DNA from: Candidatus Poribacteria bacterium
GTDB lineage: Bacteria; Poribacteria; WGA-4E; WGA-3G
Assembly (NCBI GenBank): GCA_965242965.1
Contig: OZ251518.1
Coordinates: 3,808,001 to 3,872,000, forward strand
Direction: 5' to 3'
Length of the DNA: 64,000 nucleotides
Both the position numbers and the translations under genes were made by a program. Positions 20,174-48,387 of this stretch are shown here, one piece after another; position 1 is the first letter of the stretch; each line of letters begins with the position of its first letter. The notes below the pieces were generated by a model that had not been told where the DNA came from, ran no database searches, and saw only the letters and a list, made by a program, of their open reading frames with translations.

Positions 20174-23100
20174 ATGTTCAGAAAATCCCTTTTTCCCTTA
20201 CCGACTCTGCTCATTTTACTGTGCATCGTCGGTGTCATTTCATTCGCTGCACCGAGAACCGCGGACGCGCACCATGTCACGGTAACCGGTGCCACATTCA
20301 AGTTCCAGAAAAAGTTAGGCGAGGACAGTTACTCGGCCGTTGAGGCATCCACTTCCGACACTACCCTTGAACTCGGCGACAGAATCATCGTGGATGTAAC
20401 CTTCAGTGAGCCTGTGGATATCAACAGTAGTACGGCATACGTGTTTTTACTATTTGATTCCCCAAATTGGGTTCAGTGGGTTTCGTTTGATGACAACCAA
20501 TCGAACGTAACAACGGCTAGAGTTACCTACACGGTGAAGAACACGGAGTCGCAGAGGGACAGTGACCCGGATGGGATAGAACTATACGTCTTTCCCGCGA
20601 GCAATCCGAATAATCCCAATCAGTTCCTTAGGAATCATGGTGCAGGATGGAATGCGATTGTGGAGGCTGGGACTAATATTGCCATTGATTTTACGAGTGC
20701 GAATCAGGCACTCGCGACTGCCGCGAACGCAAACGCCCCACGCATAGAGAATAATGCCCCAACGCTAGTAGATATAGATGACGACCCTATTCTGGAGCAA
20801 TACATTAAGTTTTTGGGCGCGCCGAAGTCGGGGCGACACTATTCGCAATTCGTTGCGTCCCATCGCTTGAATTGGGGTTTGGTTTGGAGGCCTGTCGATA
20901 GACAGTTCTATCTTGAACAGGGGGAATCCGATGATCCGCCTTATGACGCGAATGGCTACACTCGCGCGCCAGTGACAGGCGAGCCGAATTATGCCGCCTA
21001 CAACGTCGGTGAAAAGGTTCGTTTTGAATTGCTTTTCAACGAGAAGGTCAGAGTTGTTCGCACCGACCCTGGCATTCCAGTGACGATGAAGGTGGAGTTT
21101 GATACGCCAACCCGAAGTAAGGATGCCATCCTCGTTGAGGGTGGGGATGGCACCAGCAAAAAGTTAGTTTTTGAATGCACGGTGGAGGAAGGTGATGGCG
21201 ATTGGGGCGCAGGGCTCCAAGTCCTCTTCGGCGCTGCCCCTCAAATACATGGCGGTACCGTCCAAGACTTGGCTGGCAATGTGAGTGAATTGCCGAACTG
21301 GTTTTATGGGCGTTCGGAAGACTTCGCGAGTTATTTCCGGGCAGTGGATACTTACCCGCCGACGGTGCGGATTGCCAGGGTGCCCGTTGATGACAATGGC
21401 GACGTGATCGAGGCCACCTCTCGAAATGACACGGATAGCATCCTGTATGGTTTGGCCGGGGAGAGGGAAGAGGCCATCAGGCTGCCGCCGTCAGCCGGCA
21501 CCGAGACAGGCACCTTCACGATGTATGTTACCTTTTTTAATATGTTTCCACCTGGGTCTGGCAAAAGCAAACTTGCGGAAGACCTGCACCCGGGCGCGCC
21601 GTTTGAGGCAAGCGATATCCAGATTACAGCGGGAGGAGAAGTGCTGAGAGATGCTAGGGTGACGCTGCGGTATCGAGGGATGTGGGGCAGGGCGGTTACG
21701 GCGGCACAAGCGCGCGTCTACCTTGCCACCATCACACCCCCGCTCGGATTTAATGGCGAAATGGAGATTCAGGTGCCCGCCGGTGCGACAATGGATCTCG
21801 CCGGGAACGAAAATCAGGCATCCAATACATTGACGGTGCCCGTGAACAACCCGTTGCGCGTGGTGGAAACGCCGGAGATTGTCGCGCCTCCCGCCGGTGC
21901 CTATACCGCCGGTGATGATATTGAAGTCGAAGTGACGTATGACAGGGAGAATCTCCGCTATGAAGGCGAGGATCCGCCGTATCTGACGCTGTATCTCGGC
22001 GAAGAGATACCGGCAAATGCACGGCATGCTGTCTGGAGTGCCTCAGAAGACACGAATTCCACGAAAGTGACGTTCGCGTATACGGTGGCAGCAACGGACA
22101 CGGTGGCAGAGGCAGTGCGTGTTCCCTCTGTCAAGATACTCGTCCCGGACAAGACGATGTTGCTTTCTGGGCCACTGACTGCACCGTCTGAGCGGCAGAT
22201 TGGGACAGAGGCGGCTGCGGCGGCATCTGGCACTGCGCCAAAAACGGTGCAGACGGTAGAGCCGTTGCCGGAGGTTTCACCGATAGTCTCGGATACACCG
22301 GTGGTGCCGGTCTACCCGATTTTCGAGGAAGCAGCACCGAAGGCGGCTGCATCGGATGTGCCGCGGGAGCCGATTGTTTTCAACGAACTTGGCAATGGCA
22401 GTGGTGATGCAAACGATTGGCTGGAACTCCGCAATGTCACGGGTTCGGATGTCTCGTTAAAGGACTGGGAGCTCAGCGTCGTGCAGGATGGCAAGAAGGA
22501 AGATACGTCGCTCATCGTGTTTCCCGATGTGAGTGTGCCGGCAAATGGGCTGCTGTTGATAACGAACAGCGATCCGACAGCGGAAGGCAATGTGCTTGCA
22601 GGCGGTGATAACGTGGCGACTGCCGAGGTCGAGACAAAAGGTTCATCTCATCTCTATCTCGTCAAATCGGAGTTGTCCCTGCCAGATGATGGCAAGTTCC
22701 TCTTGATTCTCCGGAATGCGAAGGAGAAACTGGGTCTGAACGAAGCGTTCGTTGATGTCGCCGGTGGCGGCGGCAGTGACACCGATGCGTTTGTCCGCGA
22801 GCAGACAGGCGATTATGATACGCATGTCTGGCCCTTGCAAGTGTTACAGGCTCCCGGTGGTGATACCGAAGACGCCCTCGGCTCTGGCAAAGTTTGGCAG
22901 CGCGCGAAAGCGGATATTATTGGGTATCATAGAGATGCCTGGGCAGAATCCGACTTTACCGGTATCGGCTATGATAGGAAGGTGACAGAGTCTGCTGCCA
23001 CTGCCGGCACACCGGGCTATCCAAACGGTGCAGTGAAAACGGAAGCCGCCACGCCGAAGGGCAGCGTCACGCTCAGTGAAATCATGTTTGATTCGGCCGG

Positions 23101-24049
23101 CGGCACACTGCCGCAATGGATCGAACTCTACAACAATTCCAAAACGGATGCTATCAATCTCAACCGTTGGGAGTTGGAGATTCAGAATGTCGATTCCGAG
23201 GACTTAGTCGGCCGCCCGATTGTCACGTTGACGTTAGGAGAAAAAGTGATTCAACCGAATCAAACGTTGCTCATCGTCGCGGGACCGGCGCGTGCGTCGT
23301 CGGATTCGTATCTACCGGCGGACAGAGTTTACGATCTGCTCGCACTTCATGAGAAGAATCTGCGCATCAAGCGTGCGCGCGATACCTTCTTAAGTACCGA
23401 GGGGTTCTATCTGAAACTCTGCGATAGAAACGGGAATCTTGTTGACGAAGTCGGTAACAGGGACAGCGATCGGCGTTCGGATGATGCACCTGCATGGGCA
23501 TTACCGTTGAGTTTTGAGGAAGGTTCGCGGAGTTCCATCATTCGGCGTTACGATAAAGGTGTTGCGCTGCCGGGACGAAAGCGTGCGAGTTGGGTGTTGG
23601 CGGCGCGCGTCAAGCCGTTTGATGCGTCTCTCCACTACGGCCATGCCGATGACATCGGGACCCCGGGGCATCGTGAAGGCGGTGCATTACCTGTTGAGTT
23701 ATCCAGTTTCTCGCTGACGCGCACCGAGGCAGGTGCTGTCGTCTTGACATGGACAACCGAGTCAGAAGTCGACAACGCCGGGTTCAACTTGCGTCGGAGT
23801 GAAAAGCGCGCGAGTGGTTTCACGCTCTTGAATCCTGCCTTAATCGCCGGTGCCGGCACGACTGGTGAACGTCAGACTTATACGTTTACGGATACGTCTG
23901 CGAAGCCGGGTCTTGAGTATTACTATCAGATCGAGGAAGTCGCGTTTGATGGGAAACCTGAGACATTGGCGATGCGTATGTTGCGCGGTCCCGTATCTGC
24001 GGCAAATCGGATGTTGACAACGTTTGGTGCGTTGAAAAAGCGGGAATAG
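20174..24049 (+). CDS. Large secreted protein: Ig-like repeats, two lamin-tail-like domains, LPVELSSF Ig-like domain, C-terminal sorting-like motif
   Basis: AGGAGG RBS, signal peptide, repeated G..I...V.F.E.V...F.YTV units, IVFNELG..DWLELRN and LSEIMF..QWIELYN starts, ends PVSAANRMLTTFGALKKRE. Confidence 0.85.
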   Translation: MFRKSLFPLPTLLILLCIVGVISFAAPRTADAHHVTVTGATFKFQKKLGEDSYSAVEASTSDTTLELGDRIIVDVTFSEPVDINSSTAYVFLLFDSPNWVQWVSFDDNQSNVTTARVTYTVKNTESQRDSDPDGIELYVFPASNPNNPNQFLRNHGAGWNAIVEAGTNIAIDFTSANQALATAANANAPRIENNAPTLVDIDDDPILEQYIKFLGAPKSGRHYSQFVASHRLNWGLVWRPVDRQFYLEQGESDDPPYDANGYTRAPVTGEPNYAAYNVGEKVRFELLFNEKVRVVRTDPGIPVTMKVEFDTPTRSKDAILVEGGDGTSKKLVFECTVEEGDGDWGAGLQVLFGAAPQIHGGTVQDLAGNVSELPNWFYGRSEDFASYFRAVDTYPPTVRIARVPVDDNGDVIEATSRNDTDSILYGLAGEREEAIRLPPSAGTETGTFTMYVTFFNMFPPGSGKSKLAEDLHPGAPFEASDIQITAGGEVLRDARVTLRYRGMWGRAVTAAQARVYLATITPPLGFNGEMEIQVPAGATMDLAGNENQASNTLTVPVNNPLRVVETPEIVAPPAGAYTAGDDIEVEVTYDRENLRYEGEDPPYLTLYLGEEIPANARHAVWSASEDTNSTKVTFAYTVAATDTVAEAVRVPSVKILVPDKTMLLSGPLTAPSERQIGTEAAAAASGTAPKTVQTVEPLPEVSPIVSDTPVVPVYPIFEEAAPKAAASDVPREPIVFNELGNGSGDANDWLELRNVTGSDVSLKDWELSVVQDGKKEDTSLIVFPDVSVPANGLLLITNSDPTAEGNVLAGGDNVATAEVETKGSSHLYLVKSELSLPDDGKFLLILRNAKEKLGLNEAFVDVAGGGGSDTDAFVREQTGDYDTHVWPLQVLQAPGGDTEDALGSGKVWQRAKADIIGYHRDAWAESDFTGIGYDRKVTESAATAGTPGYPNGAVKTEAATPKGSVTLSEIMFDSAGGTLPQWIELYNNSKTDAINLNRWELEIQNVDSEDLVGRPIVTLTLGEKVIQPNQTLLIVAGPARASSDSYLPADRVYDLLALHEKNLRIKRARDTFLSTEGFYLKLCDRNGNLVDEVGNRDSDRRSDDAPAWALPLSFEEGSRSSIIRRYDKGVALPGRKRASWVLAARVKPFDASLHYGHADDIGTPGHREGGALPVELSSFSLTRTEAGAVVLTWTTESEVDNAGFNLRRSEKRASGFTLLNPALIAGAGTTGERQTYTFTDTSAKPGLEYYYQIEEVAFDGKPETLAMRMLRGPVSAANRMLTTFGALKKRE

Positions 24050-24062
24050 GCTGTTAAGGCCC

Positions 24063-24283: not shown

Positions 24284-24295
24284 GTTCCAAAGAGT

Positions 24296-25987
24296 TTATC
24301 GCGCAAGCACCCCATCCCCCTCCTCAACCCGCAAAACCTGGTCTGCCTTCACATTAAAAAACTGCGCCACGCGCCCACTCGGCCAGCGAATCCCAAGCAG
24401 TTCAACCTGCGTATGTTCGCCAATCCCGAAATGGACGCGGCAATCACTTTGCGAGAGATAACTCGCGCCACTCCGCACCTCTCTGATAAGCGACAAGTCG
24501 CCTGCCTTTACGGTAATTCGCGCGCCGATAGAAAAACCAATCGCTTGAACCGTTATCCAATGATTGCTGTTGCCGCCCTCGTTACGGAGGAGCGTCGCGG
24601 GTTGATTAGAGTTGTTGAGAAAAATGTCAATATCGCCATCGTTATCGTAGTCACCGAAGGCGGCGGCGCGCCCGACTTTAGGAGGCAACTCTGTCAAACC
24701 AACGGCGGATGAGACATCCGTGAAACGAGCCCATTGACGCGTCCTCCCCGTTTTGCCATCTTCGGGTAGGCGCGTCTTCCCTGTCTCGATGCCGTTATTT
24801 TCAAAGAGCAAATCTGCCTGCGCATACGTGGCATCTGAAAAAAGCCCAATGTTTTCTTGCAAATGCCCGTTAGCGACGAACAGATCCAGATATCCATCGT
24901 TGTTGTAATCAAAAAACTCCACTGCCCACTTGAAATAGGGAAGCGTGATGGCACCAATCCCTGACACATAGGAGACATCGGTGAAAAATTGATGCCGTTC
25001 GTTATGATAAAGGAGGACAGGGAGCGCGGAGGCGTTGCTCACAACCAGATCGAGGTATCCATCGTTATCATAATCGCCGAACGCGCTGCCCATGCCGCTG
25101 CCGGGCATCCCGTTTTCGTCATAGCCGACACCGGCGAGGGCGGCGGTTTCAGTAAACGTGCCGTCGCCGTTGTTTTGATAAAGCCGGTCTGCCTCCATAT
25201 CGTTGGCGATGTGCAGGTCTGCGTCGCCATCGTTATCGTAATCACCTATTGCCACGGCGAGTCCCAGTGCGCGATGCGAGATTCCCGATGCTTCGGTGAC
25301 ATCGGTGAAGGTGCTGTCACCGTTATTGCGATAGAGGATATCGGGTTCACTGACGAAGTGGCTGCCGGCAATCTGATCGGTGGGGCTACAATAGGTTCGG
25401 ATGCCGCGCGTCTCCCACCATCGGTTCGCTGCCAGCGAAAATTTCATATAGTTGACGACGTAGAGGTCTGCGTCACCATCTAAATCGTAGTCAAGAAAAG
25501 CGCAGCTTGTTCCCCATCGTTCATCGCCGACACGTGCTTTCTCCGTGATGTCGGTAAACGTGCTGTCGCCGTTGTTACGATAGAGGCGATTCGCACCGAA
25601 GTTGGTGACGTAAATATCTACGTAACCGTCGTTGTCAATATCGGCGGCGGCGCAGCCGACACCGTAGCCGATGTCGCCGGCACCTGAGGCATCTGTCACG
25701 TCGGTGAACGTGCTATCGCCGTTGTTGCGATAGAGCGCGTTTCGGTTTTCGGTTGAGGGAGGGATAGTGTTGGCGTTGACAACATAGATATCGAGGTTGC
25801 CATCGTTATCGTAATCAAAGAAGAGCGCGCCGGAACCGAGCGTTTCGATGAGGTATTTTTCCCCGGTGCGGCCATCGACGTGCTGGAAGGTGATGCCTGC
25901 CTCGGCGGTGACATCAACGAATTGGGGTTGCGGATAGGCAAAAGTGGACAAGATGAGGGTGAGGAGGAGGCAATAGATGGCTTTCAT
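24296..25987 (-). CDS. CRTAC1/ASPIC-UnbV family FG-GAP repeat protein
   Basis: Repeated DYDNDG.LD and LYRNNGD.TFTDVT; C-terminal SYLSQ...HFG.G...IRWPSG. Confidence 0.92.
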   Translation of the reverse strand: MKAIYCLLLTLILSTFAYPQPQFVDVTAEAGITFQHVDGRTGEKYLIETLGSGALFFDYDNDGNLDIYVVNANTIPPSTENRNALYRNNGDSTFTDVTDASGAGDIGYGVGCAAADIDNDGYVDIYVTNFGANRLYRNNGDSTFTDITEKARVGDERWGTSCAFLDYDLDGDADLYVVNYMKFSLAANRWWETRGIRTYCSPTDQIAGSHFVSEPDILYRNNGDSTFTDVTEASGISHRALGLAVAIGDYDNDGDADLHIANDMEADRLYQNNGDGTFTETAALAGVGYDENGMPGSGMGSAFGDYDNDGYLDLVVSNASALPVLLYHNERHQFFTDVSYVSGIGAITLPYFKWAVEFFDYNNDGYLDLFVANGHLQENIGLFSDATYAQADLLFENNGIETGKTRLPEDGKTGRTRQWARFTDVSSAVGLTELPPKVGRAAAFGDYDNDGDIDIFLNNSNQPATLLRNEGGNSNHWITVQAIGFSIGARITVKAGDLSLIREVRSGASYLSQSDCRVHFGIGEHTQVELLGIRWPSGRVAQFFNVKADQVLRVEEGDGVLAR

Positions 25988-25990
25988 CTC

Positions 25991-27160
25991 TTAATGCATT
26001 GCTTTTTGGCTGGCATGTTGCGCCTTCTTGTCCAAACCGAGCAACGCGTAGACATTCGCAAGCGTATCCCAATAATTCCGTTCATCTGGCGCGAGACGCA
26101 CGGCGGTTTCCGCGTGCCACCGGGCGTCCTCCACTCCCCGTAGGGCAAGGGCCTGTCCCTCGCCATGCTTATCCTGTCCCTCGCCGTGCTTATCCAAATA
26201 ACAGACAGCCAAATTATTATGCGCGATGGCAAGGTTCGCATCGGCAGCAATGGCGCGTTGATACGCCGCAATCGCCAATTTCAACTTCGCCTGTTTATGA
26301 TAAGCATGCCCCAGATTATAGTGTGCTGTCGCCGATGTCGGTGCGAGCGCGATGGCGCGTTGATAGTTTTCAATCGCCTTACCAAATCTTCGGCGTGCGA
26401 GATAGACGATGCCGAGGTTGTTATAGCCTTTCGCATCCGCTGGATGCGTTTTTACCCATTTCTGTGCCTGCTCCAGAAGTGGGGCAGTCTGGTGCAACAC
26501 TTTGAAAAACGCCATTACTGCGGCCGCCTTCTCCGTTTTTCCCGATTTCATCAACGCCTGCGCGAGGTGATAATGCGCCGCCGTGTTATCGGCTTGAATA
26601 GCGATACCCTTTTCAAACGTCTCAATTGCGAGAGGCAAGTGTCCCTGCTTTGCGTAGACTTGTCCTAACCCTAAAAGCGCGACGGTTCCGTTTGGGTTAA
26701 GTTTCATCGCCGCGGTATAGGCACGCGCCGCTTCTGCCAATGCCCCCTGTTTCAGTTGCACCTCGCCGAGTCCGTTGTAGGCATCCTCAAAATCTGGTGC
26801 GAGCGCAATCGCCTTTTCAAACGCTTCTTTTGCAAGCGGCAATGTCCCTTGCTTCAGATGGACTAAGCCGCGGTTATAGTGCGGCTGCGCACTTTTCGGA
26901 GAGAGTTGGGCGGCTTTATGGTAAGTGGCAAGCGCGGCACCATACTGCTTGAGCTCCGAATAGGCGATACCGAGGTGAAGATGCGCCGTGAAGGAATTCG
27001 GTTCATAGGCGATGGCTTTCTGGTATTCTGCCACCGCCCGGTCGAATTCCTCCAGTGTGTGATAGGCGAGTGCCGTTCGGTAATGCACATCGGCTCTGTT
27101 CGCGGCGGCGAGGTTGCCTATCACGCCGAAGATGAATAGTATGACGAAGGGATGTTGCAT
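25991..27160 (-). CDS. Tetratricopeptide repeat protein
   Basis: Multiple AHYNLG..Y...G....A...Y..AI...P TPR units; N-terminal hydrophobic segment. Confidence 0.9.
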   Translation of the reverse strand: MQHPFVILFIFGVIGNLAAANRADVHYRTALAYHTLEEFDRAVAEYQKAIAYEPNSFTAHLHLGIAYSELKQYGAALATYHKAAQLSPKSAQPHYNRGLVHLKQGTLPLAKEAFEKAIALAPDFEDAYNGLGEVQLKQGALAEAARAYTAAMKLNPNGTVALLGLGQVYAKQGHLPLAIETFEKGIAIQADNTAAHYHLAQALMKSGKTEKAAAVMAFFKVLHQTAPLLEQAQKWVKTHPADAKGYNNLGIVYLARRRFGKAIENYQRAIALAPTSATAHYNLGHAYHKQAKLKLAIAAYQRAIAADANLAIAHNNLAVCYLDKHGEGQDKHGEGQALALRGVEDARWHAETAVRLAPDERNYWDTLANVYALLGLDKKAQHASQKAMH

Positions 27161-27162
27161 TT

Positions 27163-27927
27163 CTAGTGGCGTTGTGCTTTCACGCTTCCCCAAGTCGTAG
27201 CCAATTTCTCCGCGGGTTCCACCGGCAAAAATTCGCCATCTTTGAGTTCGTTAATTTCTGCTGCGGTGATAATCCGGTCGAAGAGAAACACCTCATCAAT
27301 GATGCCGGTGAAAAACTCTTCACCCGGGTGTCGCGCGCCTACCATGACAGAACCGTCAATTTCATCAACGACAGGCGGTTTCGCGCCGCCGCCCGCTTTT
27401 TTGCCATCGTTGTAAATCACGACTTCGGATTTCGTATCATGCGTCACGGCGAGATGCACCCAGTCTTCGGGTTGGATGTCATCGGTGATGGCTTTCTGTG
27501 CCCACGCGCCGCCCGAGGTGCTCCAGAAATAGGTTTTATTGTCCACGGTTCTGAAGATGGATGCCCATTTGAGGGAGCCGGCGGTTACCATGTAATTCCA
27601 TTCCCGAATTTGCGCATCGCTGCGTTTTACCCAGAAAGCGATGGAGAACTGCTCGGTTAACTGCAAGGTATCGTTAATCGGCACCATGACGTGCTGTCCC
27701 TTTGTCCCATCAAATTCGAGTGCCTTGCCGAATTGTCCATCTACCCATTTCGGGTTTTGGATGAGCTCGCCATCGTGTCCGTGGACGGAGCCATCTTTCG
27801 CGTCGCCGCCTTGTCCTTCGTCAAAGGAGAGGTATAAGACGAGGGATTTGTCATCTAATCCTGCGAATGTCGGCATCGCACCGATGAGTGCGATAGCCAG
27901 CATGGTGATGAATAATTTTGTTTTCAT
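27163..27927 (-). CDS. Secreted LamG-like jellyroll domain protein with C-terminal sorting-like motif
   Basis: Signal peptide; LVLYLSFDEG, GQFGKALEFDG, WVHLAVT, FTGIIDEV; ends LPVEPAEKLATTWGSVK. Confidence 0.9.
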   Translation of the reverse strand: MKTKLFITMLAIALIGAMPTFAGLDDKSLVLYLSFDEGQGGDAKDGSVHGHDGELIQNPKWVDGQFGKALEFDGTKGQHVMVPINDTLQLTEQFSIAFWVKRSDAQIREWNYMVTAGSLKWASIFRTVDNKTYFWSTSGGAWAQKAITDDIQPEDWVHLAVTHDTKSEVVIYNDGKKAGGGAKPPVVDEIDGSVMVGARHPGEEFFTGIIDEVFLFDRIITAAEINELKDGEFLPVEPAEKLATTWGSVKAQRH

Positions 27928-35629: not shown

Positions 35630-36400
35630 TTACCGCGTCGTCTTCATTCGTCCCCACGTCGTTGCCAATTTCCCGTTGGGCTCAACGTCAAAGGCATCCT
35701 CCCAACCGTTCAGGAGTTGCTGAATTTCTTCTGCCTCCAGTGCGCGACTGAGGATGACTACCTCGTCAATACCCCCGGTAAACTGCTCCGGTCCGAATTT
35801 GAGTTGCAACACCTCGCCTACCGCCACTTTTCCACCCCATTCGGGTTTCCAATCGGCTTTGTCGGCAGATAGCGCGCCTTTTGCGCTTTCCGGTTCGCCA
35901 TCGACATACATCTCAACGTTCAGTCCGTCGTAGGTGCCGGCGATGTGGTACCACTTCTTCTGTTCTAATTCGGTTTTCCCGTAGAAGCCGGGTGTGATGC
36001 CTTGTGCAGTCCAGACCCGGAAGGAGAACCCATCAGGGATGGGTTCACCACCCGACTGGTCTTCCAATAAATACGCGCCGTTCTTTCTGACACCCGTGTC
36101 TGAATCGGCATCCACTCGGAACCAGGCGGCGACGGTAAGTTCATCTTGAACGCTTTGCAGGCTTTTTGAGTCTTGGACATCAATACTGCCGCCGCCCCCG
36201 GCGACGACTGCCTTTCCAAATTTGCCGGGCTCAAACTTAAAGTTACCCGCAATTTTTCCATCGTTGCCGTTCTTTGTTGCATCCTTAACATCGCCCTCAA
36301 AGAGCCATACGCCGACGATGGCCGGGTCATCGGGCTCTAACGCGGATGTAACGGCGCAAAGACAGAAGAGCAGCGCGATGCTGATAGTGAGCAATTTCAT
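35630..36400 (-). CDS. Secreted LamG-like domain protein with C-terminal sorting-like motif
   Basis: Signal peptide; GKFGKA, WYHIAGTYDG, FTGGIDEV; ends DVEPNGKLATTWGRMK. Confidence 0.9.
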   Translation of the reverse strand: MKLLTISIALLFCLCAVTSALEPDDPAIVGVWLFEGDVKDATKNGNDGKIAGNFKFEPGKFGKAVVAGGGGSIDVQDSKSLQSVQDELTVAAWFRVDADSDTGVRKNGAYLLEDQSGGEPIPDGFSFRVWTAQGITPGFYGKTELEQKKWYHIAGTYDGLNVEMYVDGEPESAKGALSADKADWKPEWGGKVAVGEVLQLKFGPEQFTGGIDEVVILSRALEAEEIQQLLNGWEDAFDVEPNGKLATTWGRMKTTR

Positions 36401-39900: not shown

Positions 39901-40002
39901 GATGCGGAGTCCATCGTGCGCTTGGTGCGTCAGGTGGTGCAGTTGAGTGTGGAGACGGTGGAGATCGTTTCGGGGTTGGGGGAGTTGAGGGTTGATGGGT
40001 GA
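36925..40002 (+). CDS. Type ISP/IIG-like restriction-modification enzyme (nuclease + N6 MTase + specificity domain, no helicase)
   Basis: N-terminal VDG...YWEAKD; GIVYTPQPIVDF, IIDPFVGTG, VIGNPPY; C-terminal YRERY..DLKRDLPRIP and YRLGSRSALEWV like the LlaGI/LlaBIII C-terminus. Confidence 0.88.
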   Translation: MIAIKPTHKPITNFYAELAQYEHLGETHEGAVRPAFGTLLQHYARQDNLTLVSEKRLRTPQNTTIVVDGMLIDNEFGLPRGYWEAKDLHDDLPTEIDKKFTAGYPTDNILFQTPQRAILYQNGEQVMDVDISDRGALAQVLLAFLNYEQTDIANWYRAVAEFKGKVPALGKELAGLIRNEAETNAPFQEAFTEFYRQCQAAINPNLAKAAVEEMLVQHILTEQIFTSVFDSRDFTRRNIIALEIEKVVDALVSQQWNRAEFLKSLKPFYAAIERAATTFIDFSQKQHFINTVYEQFFQGFSVKVADTHGIVYTPQPIVDFIVKSVSHVLKTEFNRTLSDSGVNIIDPFVGTGNFIVRLMQEIDKTALQAKYSEELHCNEVLLLPYYVASMNIEHEFWVATQKYLPYDKICLVDTFDVTDAPQMTMFAPDNTRRVETQKESSMFVVIGNPPYNAKQTNENDNNKNRKYPALDKQVQATYVRDSASTNTNLLYDPYVKAIFWALQRIGREGIVAFVTNNNFITGQSFDGMRKHLAQDFDTLYLFDMGGNIRKGQPGTSNVFGIQVGVSICIFVKKANAGTSRIFYNDETAAMPKDETFDFLKTREHVGNVTWQQLQPDARHTWITEGLRPEFVDFIPMGTKEAKATKGEVSGVIFHQYCNGVKTNRDAWAINFNSDALATNVQRMMETYNAEMFRWQALADKSGANVDNFVTDDKRQISWSSDLKAKLKRGKVAKYAKDKVRKVLYRPYAKRSLYFDRMLTQVYLLPSFFPTPQTEAENQVICVSATGSSQPFQVLMADVIPNSALLQIAQCFPFYTYDEDGTNRRENITDWALSAFRAHYGDASITKWDIFHYCYGVLHHPEYRERYQADLKRDLPRIPFADARGVSADFWEFVKAGERLAHLHLHYEELPVDETLRLIETPGAPLDWRVSQMKFSKDRTSLRYNDFLTLAGIPEAAFAYRLGSRSALEWVVNQYCVKSDKASGIVNDPNLVSDAESIVRLVRQVVQLSVETVEIVSGLGELRVDG

Positions 40003-40019
40003 GGGGTCACTACGCGGTG

Positions 40020-41954
40020 TTACCCCTTTTCCTTTTGCTTCGCCTCTCGCAATTTCTGGTAGCGTTCTAGGAATTCAGTATGTGCGCGTTGCACCATGGA
40101 GAGTAAATCCCTATACCGCCTGATATAGATGCGAGAGTTCGCTAAAATTTCGCGCCTGCCTCTCACGTAAGGCGTATCAACCAAATCTCCGCAGAGAAGA
40201 TACCCCGTAACCTCCTGATACTGAGATTCGGGATCGGTTGTTCCTTGGAGGTGGTTCTGGACAAAGATAACGTACTCTTCAATCTGTCTAAGTTCTTCAC
40301 GAGAAACTTTTGACATCGGACGCTTGATTTCCACTACGACGAGGTGTGTTCCTTCGCGGACGCAGAGAAAATCAATGCGCTTGTTTTTCTCTGGCACATC
40401 ACTACTTTCGGGGAATTTATCACGTAGGAGTTGCCTATAGGTGACTTCGTTAGCTACAAGCGTCCACCTCGGGTCGATCACCCAGGGGAATTCGCGTAGG
40501 AACTTATGGAGTGTTGGCACTTCCAGCGCGTTGGTTTCGATGAGTTTCTGCAGTTTTTCGATGGTTGTTATCCGTCCGCCGGTAACGCGTGCCATCTCTT
40601 TCGCTTCAACGATTTGCCACTCCCGGAACAAATCAAGGAGTTTTCCCGGGTTTTCAAGTTCGGCTTCGGTTAAGTCGTTGGCGATTTCCCAGAAGGCATC
40701 AAACTCCAGAAAATCGAGACACATTTGGATGATTGGTTCTTGTTCCTTCACGTCAGCGAGCGGGTTCCTCCGGACGGCTTGGCGCACGAGTCCGTCTGCC
40801 AATTTCAAAGCGCGTAGGTTGGCAATCTCTTCTGCATGCTGCCGAAAGTTGACATACAGTGGGTTTTCTCGCAGTCGTCGCTCATTATCCTGGCTGCGTT
40901 TCTTCGACCAATCGCTAGCAATTTTATTAACCTCTTTTTGTCCCCACTCCTTGAGAGCCGCGTTTGCTTCGGTGTCCCACACCAAGGCGTTCCGGCTTGT
41001 TCCGATGGTGTCTTCCTCTTCATCAACGAATTCAACGTGCAGTTCGCCAATGAGGTAAGAAAACGCGAACTGTTGTCCACCAACCGCGTCGAAAACAAAC
41101 GGTTCTTGGACCAACTTTCCTCTCGCCATTAAGGCAATGCCCCGGTCTACTTTGTCCTTGGTTGGCGATGTGTGTGCTAGTGCGCCAATCCAACCCGACA
41201 CTGTCCAGCCAGTTTCTGGTTGGATTTCCTCGTCGTATTCCCACAGATACGGTTTGCCATCCATATCTTTGTCGAGTAGGCGTTTCAAATCCCGGTCTTC
41301 CGGCGAAATGGGTTCGCCGTTAATGACGACTTCAAAGTTATTTTGCGCGCCGATGACAGCGAATCGCCGGGCGAGTCCACGCCGAATGATGTCAACCGAA
41401 ATCCGGCGGTTTCGGAATTTGGTGATATGTCGGAGCGTCACCGTTGTGCCTTTAGAGACATTTTCGGTTGGAGGCAGTTGCGGCAGTTCAATCTCCCTGT
41501 TCTCGGCATTTTCCAGTAGTTCGTCGTAATTCATTCGGAAATGGCTAACTTCACCGTCTTTGACGCTTTCGACAGCGATTTCCCGCGCAATACCAAACGC
41601 CGAGAATTTACCGATGCCTTTTCTGCCCATGATTCGGCGACAAGCAGGGGGCGGGGTTTGATCTGCCTTTTCCTCATCGCGCCGGTCTCTGTCGATAATG
41701 AGATATTTTTTCCGCACATCTTTATCTGACATACCGATGCCGTCATCGCGAAGAACAATCTCCGACGAGGTGCTAATTGCCTCATTGGGAATCGTAATCT
41801 CGACTTTGGTGGCGTTGGCATCCCAACTGTTGGCCACCAATTCCCCGATGACAGATGGCAACGTTGAATACATCTGCAAGCCGAGGTGCTTGATGGTACA
41901 AACGTCAAACTCCATTCGATACGGCTTTTTGGAACGATCGACTTCTTGGTGCAT
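40020..41954 (-). CDS. GHKL (MORC/HATPase_c_3-type) ATPase fused to C-terminal PD-(D/E)XK nuclease
   Basis: ELVANSWDANA, DDGIGMS, GRKGIGKFS, GTTVTL Bergerat motifs; RIDFLC...VVVEIKRP...QIEEY. Confidence 0.88.
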   Translation of the reverse strand: MHQEVDRSKKPYRMEFDVCTIKHLGLQMYSTLPSVIGELVANSWDANATKVEITIPNEAISTSSEIVLRDDGIGMSDKDVRKKYLIIDRDRRDEEKADQTPPPACRRIMGRKGIGKFSAFGIAREIAVESVKDGEVSHFRMNYDELLENAENREIELPQLPPTENVSKGTTVTLRHITKFRNRRISVDIIRRGLARRFAVIGAQNNFEVVINGEPISPEDRDLKRLLDKDMDGKPYLWEYDEEIQPETGWTVSGWIGALAHTSPTKDKVDRGIALMARGKLVQEPFVFDAVGGQQFAFSYLIGELHVEFVDEEEDTIGTSRNALVWDTEANAALKEWGQKEVNKIASDWSKKRSQDNERRLRENPLYVNFRQHAEEIANLRALKLADGLVRQAVRRNPLADVKEQEPIIQMCLDFLEFDAFWEIANDLTEAELENPGKLLDLFREWQIVEAKEMARVTGGRITTIEKLQKLIETNALEVPTLHKFLREFPWVIDPRWTLVANEVTYRQLLRDKFPESSDVPEKNKRIDFLCVREGTHLVVVEIKRPMSKVSREELRQIEEYVIFVQNHLQGTTDPESQYQEVTGYLLCGDLVDTPYVRGRREILANSRIYIRRYRDLLSMVQRAHTEFLERYQKLREAKQKEKG

Positions 41955-42066
41955 CGTGTGATTACCTCCTCTGTTAGCAAGCAACTCCAAAAACGTCACC
42001 GCAACGCTTTTTGATAACTGTTAATAGGATACTACAAAGCCTTCTTTTTTGCAAGTCAAAACAACA

Positions 42067-42723: not shown

Positions 42724-42846
42724 TCTTGCAAACAAAACCCAAAAGATGCTAAATTGTAACCTAAACCCAAAGCCCGGTAGGAGGGACCTCCCGGTCCCGA
42801 TACCCAGGGCCCCGGTCACGAATTTTGCCGAGAGAGGATAACCATA

Positions 42847-44142
42847 ATGGTTCAATACAAAGCACCCCGCGCGTTTCATGTCATGACAAAGCCCATCGGG
42901 CCGATATGCAACCTCGATTGCGAATACTGCTTCTATCTTGATAAAGAGAAACTCTACCCCGAAACTCGCTCTTTTCGCATGAATGACGAGATTCTGGAGA
43001 ACTACGTCAAACAATACATTGACGCACAGCAAGTCAACGAAGTCACCTTCGCATGGCAAGGCGGCGAACCGACGTTGATGGGCGTAGACTTTTTCCGCCG
43101 CGCTGTCGCTTATCAGAAGAAGTATCGCCGCACCGGCATGACAATCCAGAATTCGTTTCAGACGAACGCCACGCTCCTTGACGACGAATGGGGAGAGTTC
43201 TTCAAGCAGCATAACTTCCTCATCGGCGTGAGCATTGACGGCCCGCCGGAGATTCACGATAAATACCGCTACGACAAGCGCGGACGTTCATCGTCTGAGC
43301 AGGTGATTCAGGGGTTGCGCATCTTGCAGAAGCATAAGGTTGACTATAACGTGCTGTGTGTTGTCAACCGCCACAACGCCGAGTATCCGCAGGAAGTCTA
43401 CGCCTATTTCAAGGAACTTGGCGCGGAGTTTATGCAGTTCATCCCCGCAGTTGAACATTTCGGCGGAAAGAATGTGTCCCCGCGCTCTGTCACGGCACGG
43501 CAATACGGTAAATTCCTCTGCCAGATTTTCGATGAGTGGGTGGTGAACGACATCGGCACTATCTTCGTGCAGATTTTTGATGTCGCGCTGGAGGCGTGGA
43601 TGGGGTATACACCGAGCCTCTGCGTTTTCAACGAGACCTGCGGTGATGCCCTCGCATTGGAACATAACGGCGATCTTTACTCCTGCGATCACTTCGTCAC
43701 GCCGGACTATCACGTCGGTAACATTTCGGAAACCTCCATCGCCGAGTTGGTGGATTCCGATTTCCAGCGCAAGTTCGGCACCGATAAACGCGATACGCTC
43801 CCCGAATATTGCCGCACCTGCGAAGTGAAGTTCGTGTGCAACGGCGGTTGTCCCAAAAACCGATTCATCAAAACCCCGACTGGCGAGGATGGGTTGAACT
43901 ATCTCTGTGCCGGCTACAAGCAGTTTTTCAAGCACATTGACGAACCGATGAAGATGATGGCGGCCGCGCTGCATCAAGGACAGCCTGCGAATAGCATCAT
44001 CCCGGTCCTGCGCGAACGTCGAAACGCCGCGAAAACCGCGAGGATGTCGGAACAAGGCACACAAGGGAAGGTAGGACGGAATTCGCCTTGTCCGTGCGGC
44101 AGCGGCAGGAAGTATAAGCAGTGCTGCTTGCGGAACAAGTAG
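42847..44142 (+). CDS. Anaerobic sulfatase maturase (radical SAM/SPASM) with C-terminal SEC-C motif
   Basis: CNLDCEYC, WQGGEP, YSCDHF, CNGGCPKNR, GRNSPCPCGSGRKYKQCC. Confidence 0.95.
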   Translation: MVQYKAPRAFHVMTKPIGPICNLDCEYCFYLDKEKLYPETRSFRMNDEILENYVKQYIDAQQVNEVTFAWQGGEPTLMGVDFFRRAVAYQKKYRRTGMTIQNSFQTNATLLDDEWGEFFKQHNFLIGVSIDGPPEIHDKYRYDKRGRSSSEQVIQGLRILQKHKVDYNVLCVVNRHNAEYPQEVYAYFKELGAEFMQFIPAVEHFGGKNVSPRSVTARQYGKFLCQIFDEWVVNDIGTIFVQIFDVALEAWMGYTPSLCVFNETCGDALALEHNGDLYSCDHFVTPDYHVGNISETSIAELVDSDFQRKFGTDKRDTLPEYCRTCEVKFVCNGGCPKNRFIKTPTGEDGLNYLCAGYKQFFKHIDEPMKMMAAALHQGQPANSIIPVLRERRNAAKTARMSEQGTQGKVGRNSPCPCGSGRKYKQCCLRNK

Positions 44143-44153
44143 AGGAAGACGCT

Positions 44154-45665
44154 ATGGCTCAAACCAGACCGAATATCTTATTGATTACCAGCGACCAGCA
44201 GCATTGGAACACGCTGGGATGTCTCAACCCGGAGCTCCATACACCGCACTTGGATGCACTGGCGCGGGAAGGGACGCTTTTCCATCGCGCGTATTGCCCG
44301 AATCCGACCTGCACGCCGACGCGCGCTTCGATCATCACCGGCAAATACCCGAGTCAACACGGTGCCTGGTCCCTCGGCACGAAACTCTCTGAAGAGGAGC
44401 ATACCGTCGGTGAAGATTTCACAGCGGCAGGTTACCGCACCGCGCTCGTCGGCAAGGCGCATTTTCAACCGCTGCACGGCACGGACGAGTTCCCGTCGCT
44501 GGAATCCTATCCAATTCTACAAGACCTAGGTTTTTGGCGCGACTTTAACGAACCGTTTTACGGGTTTGAGCATGTGGAACTCGCACGCAACCACGCCGAT
44601 GAGGCGCACGTCGGACAGCACTATGCTATCTGGATGGAGGAGAAGGGCTGCACGAATTGGCGCGATTATTTCGCACCGCCGACCGGGAATGCCCGCGGAC
44701 AATATAGGAAATGGCCCATTCCGGAGGAATACCACTACGATACGTGGATTGCCGAACGGACGAACGTGCTGATGGAAGAATATCAGCGGAATGGTGAGAA
44801 CTTCTTCCTCTGGGCCAGTTTCTTCGACCCGCATCCGAAATATCTCGTGCCGGAACCATGGGATACGATGTATGACCCGGGCGTTCTGACAGTGCCATCA
44901 GTCACCGAAGGGGAGCATGCAAACAACCCGCCGCATTTTCAACTGACGCAGCAGCGGAAACCTGACTTCTCTGCATGGCGCGAAAGCGGGAAGGGTGTCC
45001 ATGGGTTCAATTCGCATCTGCGCGACAAGGACGAACTTGCGAAGGATATCGCTGTCTATTACGGCATGGTGAGCCTGATGGACAAATACATCGGGCAAAT
45101 CTTGGCAAAATTGGATGCGTTAGGACTTGCGGAGAATACCCTCGTCCTCTTCACGTCCGACCATGGGCATTTTTACGGACAGCACGGGCTCGTCGCAAAA
45201 GGCGCGTTCCACTATGAAGATGTGATTCGGGTGCCGTTCATCGTGCGGTATCCGGAGATTGTGCCGGCGGGGATGCAATCGGAGGCGTTGCAGAGTTTGG
45301 TAGACTTGGCACCGTCGTTCCTCAGTGCCGCCGGGATTGACATTCCGCGCCCGATGACAGGCGAAGATCAGACACCCGTTTGGTATGGTGAACAGACGAG
45401 GGTTCGGGAGCACGTTATCGTTGAGAATCACCACGAGCCGACGACGGTCCACGTCAAAACCTACGTTGACGAACGCTACAAACTCACCGTCTATTACAAC
45501 CGCGATTACGGCGAGTTGTTCGATCTTCGGGAAGACGCAGGCGAGGTTAACAACCTCTGGAATTCCCCCGCGCATGCTGAGTTGAAGGCAGAACTGGTGA
45601 TGAAGTTGTTGTTCGCGGAGATGGGGAAAGAACCGCTGTGGATGCCGCGGACATCGGGTGCATAA
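44154..45665 (+). CDS. Sulfatase (Cys-type)
   Basis: PNILLITSDQ, CTPTRAS (CxPxR), GKAH, TSDHG, ELFDL..D.GE..NL. Confidence 0.95.
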   Translation: MAQTRPNILLITSDQQHWNTLGCLNPELHTPHLDALAREGTLFHRAYCPNPTCTPTRASIITGKYPSQHGAWSLGTKLSEEEHTVGEDFTAAGYRTALVGKAHFQPLHGTDEFPSLESYPILQDLGFWRDFNEPFYGFEHVELARNHADEAHVGQHYAIWMEEKGCTNWRDYFAPPTGNARGQYRKWPIPEEYHYDTWIAERTNVLMEEYQRNGENFFLWASFFDPHPKYLVPEPWDTMYDPGVLTVPSVTEGEHANNPPHFQLTQQRKPDFSAWRESGKGVHGFNSHLRDKDELAKDIAVYYGMVSLMDKYIGQILAKLDALGLAENTLVLFTSDHGHFYGQHGLVAKGAFHYEDVIRVPFIVRYPEIVPAGMQSEALQSLVDLAPSFLSAAGIDIPRPMTGEDQTPVWYGEQTRVREHVIVENHHEPTTVHVKTYVDERYKLTVYYNRDYGELFDLREDAGEVNNLWNSPAHAELKAELVMKLLFAEMGKEPLWMPRTSGA

Positions 45666-45729
45666 ACGGGAAACGGGCGGCGATAGAAATCCGTCCATAC
45701 ATGCCTGCGCGATGGGTGCGAAAATCAAC

Positions 45730-45758
45730 TTGACATTTGTGACAGAATAGGATATTAT
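45730..45758 (+). promoter_or_regulatory. Sigma70-type promoter
   Basis: TTGACA-17 bp-TATTAT. Confidence 0.55.
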
Positions 45759-45895
45759 ATAAAGTTAACATGTGGACAGCACTTCTAGGGTTACCTAGGG
45801 TTGGCCCATGTTCTTATTGGTGGCTGCAGTCAAGTTGCAGTCGTTGCCTCGCTATCCTTTAAGTTTAACTTTTATCAATTTCAGGAGATGATACG

Positions 45896-46627: not shown

Positions 46628-46743
46628 TAATTTCCGAGCACGGCGAGGGGGCGACGATGCCAGTAACAGGCAGATATGGATATCCGCTCTTACAGTGCAG
46701 CCTTTGGAAATGGGAAGCCCGCGAGGGATAGGCCATCGCCCGC

Positions 46744-47559
46744 CTAATACCGCCGTTTCCAATGCCAACTGTCACTGCCGGAGATGAGGGGCCGGATGTC
46801 CTCTGGCAGCGTCTCAATAAATTCGGGACTTACCTCGTTGCCGGGCCATTCGCGCACCATCGGCGGCGTGTAACCGGCGATGAGGATTACCCGCTCTTTG
46901 TCGCTCCGGATAGCCGTTGTGCTGTGCACCAGCGACTCGGCGAAAAGCAACACAGCTCCGGCGGATGCCTCCACCTGATAGATGAGTTTGTCATCGGCTA
47001 ATGCCGCTTCGATCATCTCGTTTTGGGGCCATGTCAAGCGGTGGCTTCCGGGAATAACGCATGTGCCGCCATCGTCGGGGCCGACATCGGTGAGGTAGGC
47101 GAGCGTCTTCACGAAGATGCAGTGGAACTTGTGCTGCTCCATGTAGGTGCCCCATCCGTGTTGTGTGCCGCGATGAAAGCCTGTCGGGTTATAGCGACGT
47201 TTGCGGAGTTCGCTGAGAGGTGTCTCCGGGTTCCGGCGATTGATAATCGCCTCTGTCTCCTCCAGTCGGACTTTGCCGCCCACCACTTCCTCAACGAGAG
47301 GCACCAGTTTGGGGTGCGCGGCGTATGCCAATAACGCCGGTGCGTATTCAACAAGGTTGCCGAAAAGCACGTGGTGTTCGCCATGTGGGCGTGCATAGAC
47401 GCGCGTGGATTCCAATGCCGCGTCTGCCTTGATTTTGTAGAGCGCGTCTTTCATCTGTGCGATTTCATCGCCGCTCAGGACATCCTCTAGCAACACGAAG
47501 CCGTAGATGTCGAAGTGTAGCCGTTGCGCTGGCGTGAGTTGGATGGGTTCACTTTTCAT
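46744..47559 (-). CDS. PhyH family dioxygenase-like protein
   Basis: FDIYGF, YLTDVGPDDGGT.VIPGSH, ESLVH; the HxD position reads HRG. Confidence 0.85.
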   Translation of the reverse strand: MKSEPIQLTPAQRLHFDIYGFVLLEDVLSGDEIAQMKDALYKIKADAALESTRVYARPHGEHHVLFGNLVEYAPALLAYAAHPKLVPLVEEVVGGKVRLEETEAIINRRNPETPLSELRKRRYNPTGFHRGTQHGWGTYMEQHKFHCIFVKTLAYLTDVGPDDGGTCVIPGSHRLTWPQNEMIEAALADDKLIYQVEASAGAVLLFAESLVHSTTAIRSDKERVILIAGYTPPMVREWPGNEVSPEFIETLPEDIRPLISGSDSWHWKRRY

Positions 47560-47634
47560 CTCGGTGTTCCTCCTCATTTCCGGTAGGCGCGCGTTGGCAG
47601 CGCGCACGTTAACTTGCGCCGTTTGAAACCGCGT

Positions 47635-48387
47635 CTACCGGGGGTGTCCCCCTGTTTTGATATTTGCCCACATCGTTGTCAGTTTACCATCTGTTTCTAC
47701 TGCAAGTTCCAGCGGTTCATCGCCTTCGTAAACGAGCAGTTCATCGACGTAGCCCGCGACAGTCATCCCCCAGACATAAAAGACGAGCCACTTGGCTGTG
47801 GGCCCGATGGCGGCGTTCCGAAACGCAAGCCCCTTTTCCGGTTTCGCTTTCAGTGCTTTGTCCCTGCTGTCTCCCGCGTAGAAGTCAAACTCGCTTTTGT
47901 CAAAATCGGCGACAATTCGGATGTATTTCCAGACATCTGTCTCAAAATCGCCGATTGGTTGCCACGCGGCACCGTCGTAGAAGCGGACAATATTTGCGTC
48001 CCAGTTGATATAAGTGCCGCCGTTGTTTTCGCCAATGTTATCGGCGGAACCGATTTTGACGTTGAAAGAGCGTCCGCCGCCCTCAATGTAAACCCAGCAT
48101 TCAACGGAGGTGATAGGGTTATCGGTTTCTATCGGCACGCCGAGTCCATCGCCATCTGCGCCGCCCAAAATGGCGAGCGATTTTTTGTCGGTTTTGACGG
48201 TGTCATCGGTAACCTCAAATCCGTCGCCTTGCGCCTCCCAATCTTCGGGGGCTTTGCCGAGGGTGAATTCTTCAAATCCTGTCTGGACGAATACCTTCTG
48301 TGCGGCGGTGCTGTTCATAAAGACGACACTGAGCAGGATGGCCGTTGCGATAGTCAAATAGGTTTTCGTGTCTTTCGTGTTTGTCAT
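47635..48387 (-). CDS. Secreted beta-rich (lectin-like) protein with C-terminal sorting-like motif
   Basis: AGGAG RBS; signal peptide; ends LAVETDGKLTTMWANIK. Confidence 0.8.
   Translation of the reverse strand: MTNTKDTKTYLTIATAILLSVVFMNSTAAQKVFVQTGFEEFTLGKAPEDWEAQGDGFEVTDDTVKTDKKSLAILGGADGDGLGVPIETDNPITSVECWVYIEGGGRSFNVKIGSADNIGENNGGTYINWDANIVRFYDGAAWQPIGDFETDVWKYIRIVADFDKSEFDFYAGDSRDKALKAKPEKGLAFRNAAIGPTAKWLVFYVWGMTVAGYVDELLVYEGDEPLELAVETDGKLTTMWANIKTGGHPR

Follow-up and report, generated by a model that had tools for sequence, protein, structure and literature searches.

A short C-terminal motif shared by secreted proteins of Candidatus Poribacteria is probably a lineage-specific sorting tag

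Candidatus Poribacteria form an uncultured phylum that is dominant in many marine sponges. Here we report the analysis of four secreted proteins with related C-terminal tails that are encoded in one genomic window from this phylum, the window being the whole stretch of 64,000 nucleotides that was analysed. The largest of them, P0001, is a giant protein at 20174..24049 on the plus strand (its ORF is open from 20153, with the probable start at 20174), which consists of a body with Pfam matches to LTD and Big_12, a 120-aa C-terminal module and a divergent form of the tag. The module, LPVELSSF...TWTTESEVDNAGFNLRRS...YYYQIEEV, lies at 23687..23989 (+) and has no match in Pfam or NCBIfam, and the divergent tag, PVSAANRMLTTFGALKKRE, follows at 23990..24046 (+) and is closed by the stop codon at 24047-24049. 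The other three genes are on the minus strand. P0002 (27163..27927) is a LamG protein that matches Laminin_G_3 (PF13385) with 82.3 bits, above the Pfam gathering score, and carries the canonical tag LPVEPAEKLATTWGSVKAQRH at 27166..27228 (35.2 bits with the tag HMM; stop codon 27163-27165), which is retained in its orthologues. P0003 (35630..36400; ORF extending to 36544, with the Met of MKLLTISIALLF as the probable start) matches the same family with 76.3 bits, also above the gathering score, and ends in the C-terminal peptide DVEPNGKLATTWGRMKTTR; its tag FDVEPNGKLATTWGRMKTTR occupies 35633..35692 (35.7 bits) and its stop codon 35630-35632. P0004 (47635..48387; probable start MTNTKDTK...) belongs to no Pfam family and, by profile comparison only, appears to be a remote LamG-like beta-sandwich (hhalign with LamG, 93.7%, E 1.8e-7, the aligned region including the tag); it ends in the C-terminal peptide AVETDGKLTTMWANIKTGGHPR, with its tag LAVETDGKLTTMWANIKTGGHPR at 47638..47706 (29.1 bits) and its stop codon at 47635-47637.

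A sequence-only reading of this DNA had proposed that the four proteins share a C-terminal motif and are all exported. Translation confirmed the four terminal peptides (PVSAANRMLTTFGALKKRE, LPVEPAEKLATTWGSVKAQRH, DVEPNGKLATTWGRMKTTR and AVETDGKLTTMWANIKTGGHPR), and the proposed signal peptides agree with the N-termini, each of which is of the Sec type by inspection, with K/R in the n-region, a hydrophobic core and a small-x-small site. The window also contains lpxB and lpxK, which implies an LPS-bearing envelope.

The tag is a peptide of approximately 20 residues with the consensus h-L-[PA]-V-[ED]-P-x-x-K-L-[AT]-T-T-W-[GA]-x-[LIVM]-K, behind which come 1-9 further residues, most of them basic. 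A search of the 5.7-Mb genome of the window with the tag HMM identified 113 ORFs that terminate in the tag, all of them carrying it at the extreme C-terminus, and no internal match was found at E<1 in the whole genome. The motif greatly exceeds chance expectation: a loose regular expression gave 46 matches in 57,628 six-frame segments, as compared with 4 in reversed and 0-4 in shuffled segments, and all 46 sit 4-9 residues ahead of a stop codon. A Met and a hydrophobic N-terminus are present in about 103 of the 113 bearers according to a hydrophobicity heuristic, which is not a trained predictor, and seven of the ten proteins missed by the heuristic keep a hydrophobic stretch but lack an ATG. 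The motif is thus neither internal nor cytoplasmic, the two distributions that would have spoken against an export signal. Within the tag, the Trp is invariant and the Val, Lys and Thr are nearly so across 29 clusters of preceding bodies, and the tail behind the invariant Lys is short (1-6 residues), variable and Arg-rich (Arg at 44 of 154 residues), with Arg as the last residue in 22 and Tyr or Phe in 5 of the 46 strict tags. Each of these strict tags is encoded by a 30-mer of its own, third-position identity being 0.54, and a DNA repeat as the origin of the motif was rejected on these grounds. Selection on the tag acts at the level of protein, not DNA.

After removal of the tails, the 113 bodies fell into 29 BLAST clusters, the largest having 54 members, and the tag stays conserved while the bodies diverge past BLAST detection. 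Laminin_G_3 was found in 52 of the tagged proteins, and the other Pfam bodies include PD40, CBM_4_9, CBM9_1, NPCBM, F5_F8_type_C, 3keto-disac_hyd, HmuY, DUF4960, RhaB_D2 and giants with LTD, fn3 and LRR domains, while 18 of the 34 non-LamG representatives have no Pfam family. Most tagged proteins are small single binding modules (median length 277 aa), and 46 of the 113 genes are organized in tandem arrays. The description of the four proteins as unrelated therefore applies to the genome, where the tag follows unrelated folds, but not to the window, where two are Laminin_G_3 proteins, a third is LamG-like by hhalign and only the body of P0001 is not LamG.

The AlphaFold2 model of P0002 (mean pLDDT 91.4, pTM 0.87), which replaced an earlier run on 28 close orthologues that was too weak (mean pLDDT 58.9), shows a complete LamG fold, with pLDDT of 86-99 over core residues 1-210 and below 50 over tag residues 213-232. 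In the model, TTWGSVKA (mature residues 223-229) takes the form of a helix, also at pLDDT <50, and the tag is predicted to be a flexible tail outside the fold that it follows. The possibility that the motif is a structural strand of the preceding fold is contradicted by the 29 body clusters, the at least 10 Pfam families and the low pLDDT of the tag; body diversity and the AlphaFold model together show that the tag is independent of the fold in front of it.

The motif had also been assigned to P0001, where a tail is indeed present, but as a degenerate variant that the tag HMM does not report at E<10. The 120-aa C-terminal module is common to 30 giant paralogues in the genome, including P0001, and starts 120 residues before the stop codon in 29 of them and 119 residues in one. 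The tag profile aligns end to end with the tails of these modules (19 columns, P 3.9e-4), and intermediates between the canonical and divergent forms, such as GKLTMRWSQLK and GKLTTRWGELK, were identified, so that the P0001 tail is a divergent copy of the tag. The ExDNAGFN DNA pattern of the module was detected in family f1 alone (78/99 versus 0/52), and the module relatives among the matches listed all have identities of at least 86%. A body domain shared by two paralogues (33% identity over 272 aa) is followed by a T9SS type-A C-terminal domain (CTD) in one of them and by the 120-aa module and tag in the other, which suggests swapping of C-terminal anchors between paralogues. Neither the tag profile nor the 120-aa module had a match better than chance level among PDB sequences (E>=0.22). 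ESM Atlas scores of 0.84-0.88 serve as leads only.

The tag is distributed throughout the phylum. Its DNA pattern was found in 41 of 41 relatives and in 149 of 151 phylum genomes, at 4-78 copies per genome versus 0-2 for the reversed control, and the remaining two, in which no strict match occurs, have 72 and 79 HMM matches of the variant GKAAATWG, so that all 151 sampled genomes carry the tag in its strict or variant form. In other poribacterial genomes, 80 loci yielded 78 strict matches, and each of the 78 has a stop codon 3-10 aa downstream. Among 1.84 billion representatives, 541 matched the tag profile at E<=1e-3, and of the best 150 of these, 139 carry the match no more than 10 aa from the C-terminus. 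The strict matches listed in a scan of 185,579 species were all poribacterial. Phylogenetic profiling inside the phylum found no tag-free lineage and hence no contrast for co-occurring genes. The tag is not described by any Pfam or NCBIfam model, and no description was found in a search of the main texts of openly accessible articles.

Analysis of the genome for secretion machinery revealed components resembling those of the type IX secretion system. A Sov/SprA-like gene scored 159.6 bits with TIGR04189 (cut-off 200) and a PorU-like gene 408 bits with NF033707 (cut-off 420); the PorV/PorQ family NF033709 was above its cut-off in three of the four barrels scanned, with at least six PorV-like matches in the genome, and Peptidase_C25 was found in 151 of 151 phylum genomes. 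GldL and GldM had no match in the genome, the same searches being silent in control genomes as well. The genome, which is 94.7% complete, also has no match to exosortase (PF09721, Exosortase_EpsH, at E<=0.01) or to PEP-CTERM (TIGR02595). It encodes 43 canonical T9SS type-A CTDs, never on the same protein as the tag, and the three C-terminal classes (113 proteins with the tag, 35 with the CTD and 30 with the module) show no overlap. The neighbours of tagged genes belong to families abundant in the genome (Gfo/Idh/MocA, TPR, FG-GAP/ASPIC, sulfatase, PhyH and type ISP R-M), and no candidate receptor, translocon or peptidase was found among them. A complex prediction for residues 36-386 of a PorV/PorQ-family barrel with the tag alignment gave 0.00, a value without controls that has no bearing either way.

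Tagged proteins resemble T9SS type-A cargo in combining a Sec signal peptide with an extreme C-terminal signal that has a basic end, and in the variety of otherwise unrelated secreted or surface proteins that bear the signal; the genome also holds Sov/SprA-, PorV/PorQ- and PorU-like genes. However, the tag has about 20 residues and is predicted to be unstructured, whereas type-A CTDs are beta-sandwiches of 70-100 aa with motifs B, D and E, and tagged proteins have a median length of 277 aa versus 748 aa for CTD proteins. None of 38 tagged proteins scanned matches TIGR04183 (Por_Secre_tail), and a comparison of hhalign profiles between the tag and 35 CTDs of the same genome gave P 0.46 over 2 columns. 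This comparison speaks against the view, now rejected, that the tag forms the final strand of such a CTD, and the tag does not resemble T9SS CTDs in either sequence or size. In T9SS, type-B CTDs with PorP/SprF-like partners provide a parallel in which one outer-membrane system serves several C-terminal signal classes through different barrels, and a similar logic may apply to the PorV-like matches and the mutually exclusive C-terminal classes of Poribacteria. Type-B CTDs are folded domains whose partner genes usually adjoin the cargo; in contrast, no such partner gene was seen adjoining tagged genes. T9SS signals can be small: 'short CTDs' of Prevotella intermedia with 43-55 aa and three strands have been described, and neither secretion nor attachment of Hbp35 is possible without its C-terminal 22 residues (PMC11969387). 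Different T9SS signals are reported to be read by different shuttle proteins (PMC12618676). In Bacteroidota, specialised shuttle barrels of the system serve distinct C-terminal signal classes.

With PEP-CTERM the tag shares a short signature near the C-terminus (P-V-E-P in the tag, V-P-E-P in PEP-CTERM), a basic end and a large set of bearers, numbering from dozens to hundreds in a genome. PEP-CTERM is also lineage-restricted and frequently follows LamG-type bodies, as does the tag. In contrast to PEP-CTERM, LPXTG, GlyGly-CTERM and MYXO-CTERM, the tag has no hydrophobic transmembrane stretch between signature and basic end, the V-E-P being separated from that end by only about 10 polar residues (KLATTWGxIK). 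Like the tag, the beta-signal of outer-membrane proteins is a short peptide at the C-terminus, and it is recognized in the periplasm, where the tag would be read as well. It has a terminal aromatic residue and forms part of a beta-barrel, whereas the tag rarely ends in an aromatic residue (5/46, versus Arg in 22/46) and follows soluble LamG, CBM and propeller bodies.

Taken together, the position and compartment of the motif and its independence of the preceding fold both favoured a C-terminal export or anchoring tag, which is the best reading of the motif, and in Candidatus Poribacteria the motif probably acts as a lineage-specific sorting tag at the C-terminus. In this scenario, the tagged proteins, mostly with small carbohydrate-binding, beta-sandwich or beta-propeller bodies, would leave the cytoplasm via Sec, after which a dedicated envelope factor would read the tag, and the protein would then cross the outer membrane or be anchored on the surface of the cell; cleavage may occur close to V-[ED]-P. 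In this way the cell may be coated with over 100 lectin-like modules. The leading candidate for the reader, proposed tentatively and still rather doubtful, is a T9SS-like outer-membrane module of a Sov/SprA-like translocon, several PorV/PorQ-family barrels and PorU-like C25 peptidases; since such genes are present and could serve the tag, the 'uncharacterised secretion system' invoked by the sequence-only reading may not be required. For LPXTG, PEP-CTERM and T9SS CTDs, the C-terminal sorting signal has in each case pointed the way to an envelope machine dedicated to it. It is conceivable, although the odds are somewhat against it, that the tag represents a new class of sorting signal, in which an unstructured peptide some 20 residues long, without membrane anchor or folded domain, directs about 3% of the phylum's proteome (more than 140 proteins per genome, including 30 giants) to the surface, either via its own machinery or via a motor-less Sov/SprA-PorV-PorU module outside Bacteroidota with three interchangeable signal classes.

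The tag provides a simple rule for predicting the poribacterial surface proteome and a peptide bait for its machinery. Since over 100 exported proteins in each genome, most of them glycan-binding, bear the tag, these proteins likely form a surface 'lectin coat', the likely interface of the symbionts with the host matrix and sulfated polysaccharides. The export route of poribacterial 'Por-tail' proteins was reportedly posed as a question in 2014, and it becomes testable with T9SS cargo domains and Sov/SprA-, PorU- and PorV-like genes in a genome without detectable GldL/GldM.

Several other explanations of the motif were considered. That it is the inherited tail of one expanded family of LamG paralogues, reflecting common descent or a structural element and no signal, would fit the 52 LamG bearers, the cluster of 54 members and the three LamG-like proteins in the window, but is extremely improbable given a tag that lies outside the LamG fold in the AlphaFold model, persists where bodies have diverged past BLAST detection and also follows PD40, CBM4_9, CBM9, NPCBM, F5/8C, HmuY, DUF4960 and the LTD/fn3/LRR giants. 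A processing or degradation tag recognized by a periplasmic protease would account for the invariant Lys and the Arg-rich tail behind it, whose length and sequence are unconserved as for a discarded piece; a speculative version has cleavage after this Lys and cross-linking of the resulting C-terminal Lys to peptidoglycan, as in Braun's lipoprotein. No supporting gene association was found, however, and it is difficult to see why upwards of 100 secreted proteins, conserved throughout the phylum, should carry nothing but a degron, which leaves this explanation very improbable.

Slightly less improbable, yet still quite unlikely, is a short amphipathic basic helix that holds periplasmic proteins on the membrane face, as does the C-terminal anchor of E. 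coli PBP5. The AlphaFold helix over TTWGSVKA, the placement of L, W and [LIVM] on one helix face with flanking K/R, and the Arg-rich tail are consistent with such an anchor, but the helix has pLDDT <50, helix formation is disfavoured by Thr-Thr, Gly and Pro, and such helices tolerate wide variation, unlike the invariant Trp and nearly invariant Val, Lys and Thr of the tag. An alternative that is unlikely, although it deserves more weight, is a docking peptide that, through beta-strand addition or in the manner of a dockerin, plugs many small lectin modules non-covalently into a single scaffold or surface layer and has no role in transport. In its favour, small single binding modules make up the overwhelming majority of bearers, many in tandem arrays, the tag stands free of the domain of the protein that bears it, its invariant T-T-W-G and K suggest a single specific protein partner, and cohesin and dockerin domains in the genome indicate that scaffold logic is in use; on the other hand, no scaffold with repeated receptor domains was found beside the tagged genes, and proteins exported by Sec alone would still require an export route. 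Docking of this kind overlaps the anchoring half of the sorting-tag explanation.

Translation of the ORFs placed all four C-terminal peptides named in the sequence-only reading exactly at their claimed sites. Three of them, on the LamG proteins P0002 (27163..27927, minus strand) and P0003 (35630..36400, minus strand) and on P0004 (47635..48387, minus strand), follow almost the same pattern (LPVEPAEKLATTWGSVKAQRH, FDVEPNGKLATTWGRMKTTR, and LAVETDGKLTTMWANIKTGGHPR), and the 1298-aa protein P0001 (20174..24049, plus strand) ends in a looser fourth peptide, PVSAANRMLTTFGALKKRE. The signal peptides claimed for all four were likewise borne out, as judged solely by inspection and a hydrophobicity heuristic: after a plausible start codon, each has a basic n-region followed by a hydrophobic core and then a site of the small-x-small type.

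The tag was then counted across the 5.7-Mb genome (two contigs), in which the window occupies C1:3808001-3872000. The loose core expression [KR][LM][ATS]T[TMFV][WF][GA] gave 46 matches in 57,628 six-frame stop-to-stop segments, every one of them 4-9 residues ahead of a stop, with 4 matches in the reversed segments and 0-4 in each of five shuffles. An 18-column HMM made from these 46 matches found 113 ORFs longer than 100 aa ending in the tag and no internal match with E<1 among the genome ORFs, in agreement with the strictly terminal position expected of a sorting signal; the bearers within the window are the four already reported. A Met with a strongly hydrophobic N-terminal stretch was detected heuristically in 103 of the 113; among the ten misses, seven have a hydrophobic stretch without an ATG, two are genuinely weak, and one is P0004, whose signal lies beyond the limit of the N-terminal search.

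After removal of the last 28 residues, BLAST grouped the 113 bodies into 29 clusters (54, 10, 6, 5, 4, 3, and 3 members, six pairs, and 16 singletons). Laminin_G_3 was assigned by Pfam to 52 bearers, and five more LamG matches lie in untagged ORFs. A Pfam scan of 34 representatives from the remaining clusters returned PD40 propellers (4 of 4 scanned), CBM_4_9, CBM9_1 (2), NPCBM, F5_F8_type_C, 3keto-disac_hyd, HmuY, DUF4960, RhaB_D2, LTD+Big_12, and fn3+LRR+LTD, and left 18 without any family. The description of the cargo as unrelated thus holds genome-wide but not within the window, where P0002 and P0003 have LamG bodies by Pfam and P0004 is LamG-like (hhalign probability 93.7%, E 1.8e-7, the tag falling inside the alignment).

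An AlphaFold2 model of a tagged LamG protein was poor with 28 close orthologues and good with 40 rows including 21 paralogues (mean pLDDT 91.4, pTM 0.87). In this model the core (mature residues 1-210) has a pLDDT of 86-99, and the tag (residues 213-232) stays below 50 with just a low-confidence helix, so that the tag is predicted to lie outside the preceding fold and not to be one of its structural strands. Selection acts on the protein and not on the DNA: no two of the 46 strict tags share the same coding 30-mer, and where the first two bases of tag codons agree, the third agrees in just 54% of pairs. The invariant Lys is followed by 1-6 residues, 44 of 154 being Arg, and 22 of the 46 tags end in Arg.

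The tag extends throughout the phylum. Candidatus Poribacteria is the source name of homologues of P0002 and of a PorV-like protein. A degenerate DNA pattern for KL[AT]TTW[GA] was present in all 41 relatives and, in a sample of 151 genomes of the phylum covering 9 families and 22 genera, in 149; match counts per genome are 4-78 vs 0-2 for the reversed pattern. The two genomes without a strict match have 72 and 79 profile matches to the variant ...GKAAATWGSLK, and no sampled genome of the phylum represents a lineage without the tag. The strict pattern VEPxxKL[AT]TTWG, for which we estimate less than one chance match in a collection of 185,579 species (one genome each), matched at least 130 stretches; all 80 matches listed belong to poribacterial records, and in all 78 recovered from the listed loci x-[LIVM]-[KR] comes next, then a stop within 3-10 residues. 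Against 1.84 billion representative protein sequences, 541 matches to the tag profile reached E<=1e-3, and 139 of the best 150 of these have the tag no more than 10 residues from the C-terminus; the other 11 comprise six repeat or internal look-alikes and five proteins with 11-29 extra residues behind the tag. The profile also matched the library proteins P0365 and P0452, one of 4133 aa with 30 internal stretches resembling the tag, the other of 101 aa with three tandem ARGKLTTVWGKLTI units.

The P0001 tail represents a third kind of C-terminus in the genome, beside the tag and the type-A CTD of type IX secretion systems (T9SS). A nearly identical 120-aa module ends 30 proteins of 826-2214 aa (for example at window 23687-24046, C1:1749391-1755525, and C1:5384528-5391169 of the same contig), with the layout LPVELSSF...TWTTESEVDNAGFNLRRS...YYYQIEEV..., then PVSAxNRMLTTFGEVKxxE, and without a Pfam or NCBIfam match. 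Paralogue tails GKLTMRWSQLK, GKLTTRWGELK, and GKATTTWGDLK bridge it to the canonical tag, and profile comparison aligns module tail and tag from end to end across 19 columns (P 3.9e-4). Its DNA pattern occurs in 78 of 99 genomes of the window's own family vs 0 of 52 elsewhere, which suggests confinement to that family.

A search with TIGR04183 found 43 type-A CTDs, all C-terminal on larger proteins, in agreement with a 2014 paper whose consulted passages report such domains in poribacterial single-cell genomes, describe the Por structural genes as not found there, and leave the export pathway open (PMC3909097). Besides this cargo, the genome holds a T9SS-like set at C1:3451181-3457805 (L221:182-6805), C1:3236351-3244033 (L064:2352-10034), L065:5290-6450, L066:5053-5985, and L063:9922-11010, L-numbers being stretches of the genome. 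It comprises a 2207-aa Sov/SprA-like ORF (159.6 bits, E 6e-47; cut-off 200 bits), three PorU-like Peptidase_C25 giants (the top one 408 bits vs a cut-off of 420), the best of them followed by a PorV2-like barrel gene, and several PorV/PorQ-family barrels (3 of 4 scanned above the family cut-off). Peptidase_C25 occurs in every one of the 151 phylum genomes. Neither GldM nor GldL had a match in the genome, the same searches being silent in every control genome too, and exosortase and PEP-CTERM searches were also negative. Some 2 kb upstream of the best PorV/PorQ-family gene there are cohesin-domain proteins (L065:800-3243), one of which also contains dockerin repeats fused with an FGE-sulfatase domain. 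Tag, type-A CTD, and module never co-occur on one protein, and the proteins bearing them have a median length of 277, 748, and 1473 aa, respectively; a single body domain is joined in one paralogue to a type-A CTD and in another to module and tag.

LPXTG, PEP-CTERM, and T9SS CTDs are recognised by a common combination of features, which the tag shares: a strictly terminal position, signal peptides, cargo proteins that are unrelated, fold independence, exchange for another C-terminal signal, and purifying selection across the phylum. On these features the tag is probably a post-Sec sorting or anchoring signal, an unusual one in that it has no membrane anchor and no folded domain. It was covered by no Pfam or NCBIfam model in scans of its bearers, and no description was found in open-access papers and bioRxiv. 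Less probably, it might act as a docking peptide, an amphipathic anchor, or a protease or peptidoglycan-linkage site; since its invariants (V, K, T-T-W-G, K) are sequence-specific, we argue for a protein receptor over generic membrane binding. The reading as a family tail is already contradicted.

The most economical reader of such a signal would be the T9SS-like outer-membrane module, because T9SS signals shrink and their shuttle barrels differ by signal class. Such signals can be as short as 43-55 aa, the last 22 residues of Hbp35 being the sole part that its secretion and attachment absolutely required (PMC11969387), and signal classes are reported to be read by different shuttle barrels (PMC12618676). 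This assignment is tentative and less likely than not: profile comparison detected no similarity of the tag to the genome's own type-A CTDs, and nothing ties it to any PorV/PorQ paralogue.

Within the window, an operon-like row (24296-27927, minus strand) runs from a tagged LamG gene through a TPR gene (31-nt overlap) to an FG-GAP/UnbV_ASPIC gene, and TPR and FG-GAP/ASPIC genes adjoin tagged genes 7-8 times in the genome. Phytanoyl-CoA dioxygenase family (PhyH) genes lie directly downstream of two tagged genes (34734-35567 and 46744-47607, minus strand) and number five among tagged-gene neighbours genome-wide, an adjacency that may be due to chance because PhyH is expanded in the phylum. Beside a HATPase_c_3 protein lies a 1025-aa restriction-modification enzyme of type ISP (36925-41999), and more type ISP paralogues (L047, L048) are near tagged genes elsewhere. 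At 42847-45665 (plus strand), the gene of a radical SAM/SPASM protein whose C-terminus bears a SEC-C motif runs into the beginning of a sulfatase gene, and the two look like an anaerobic sulfatase-maturase/sulfatase pair.
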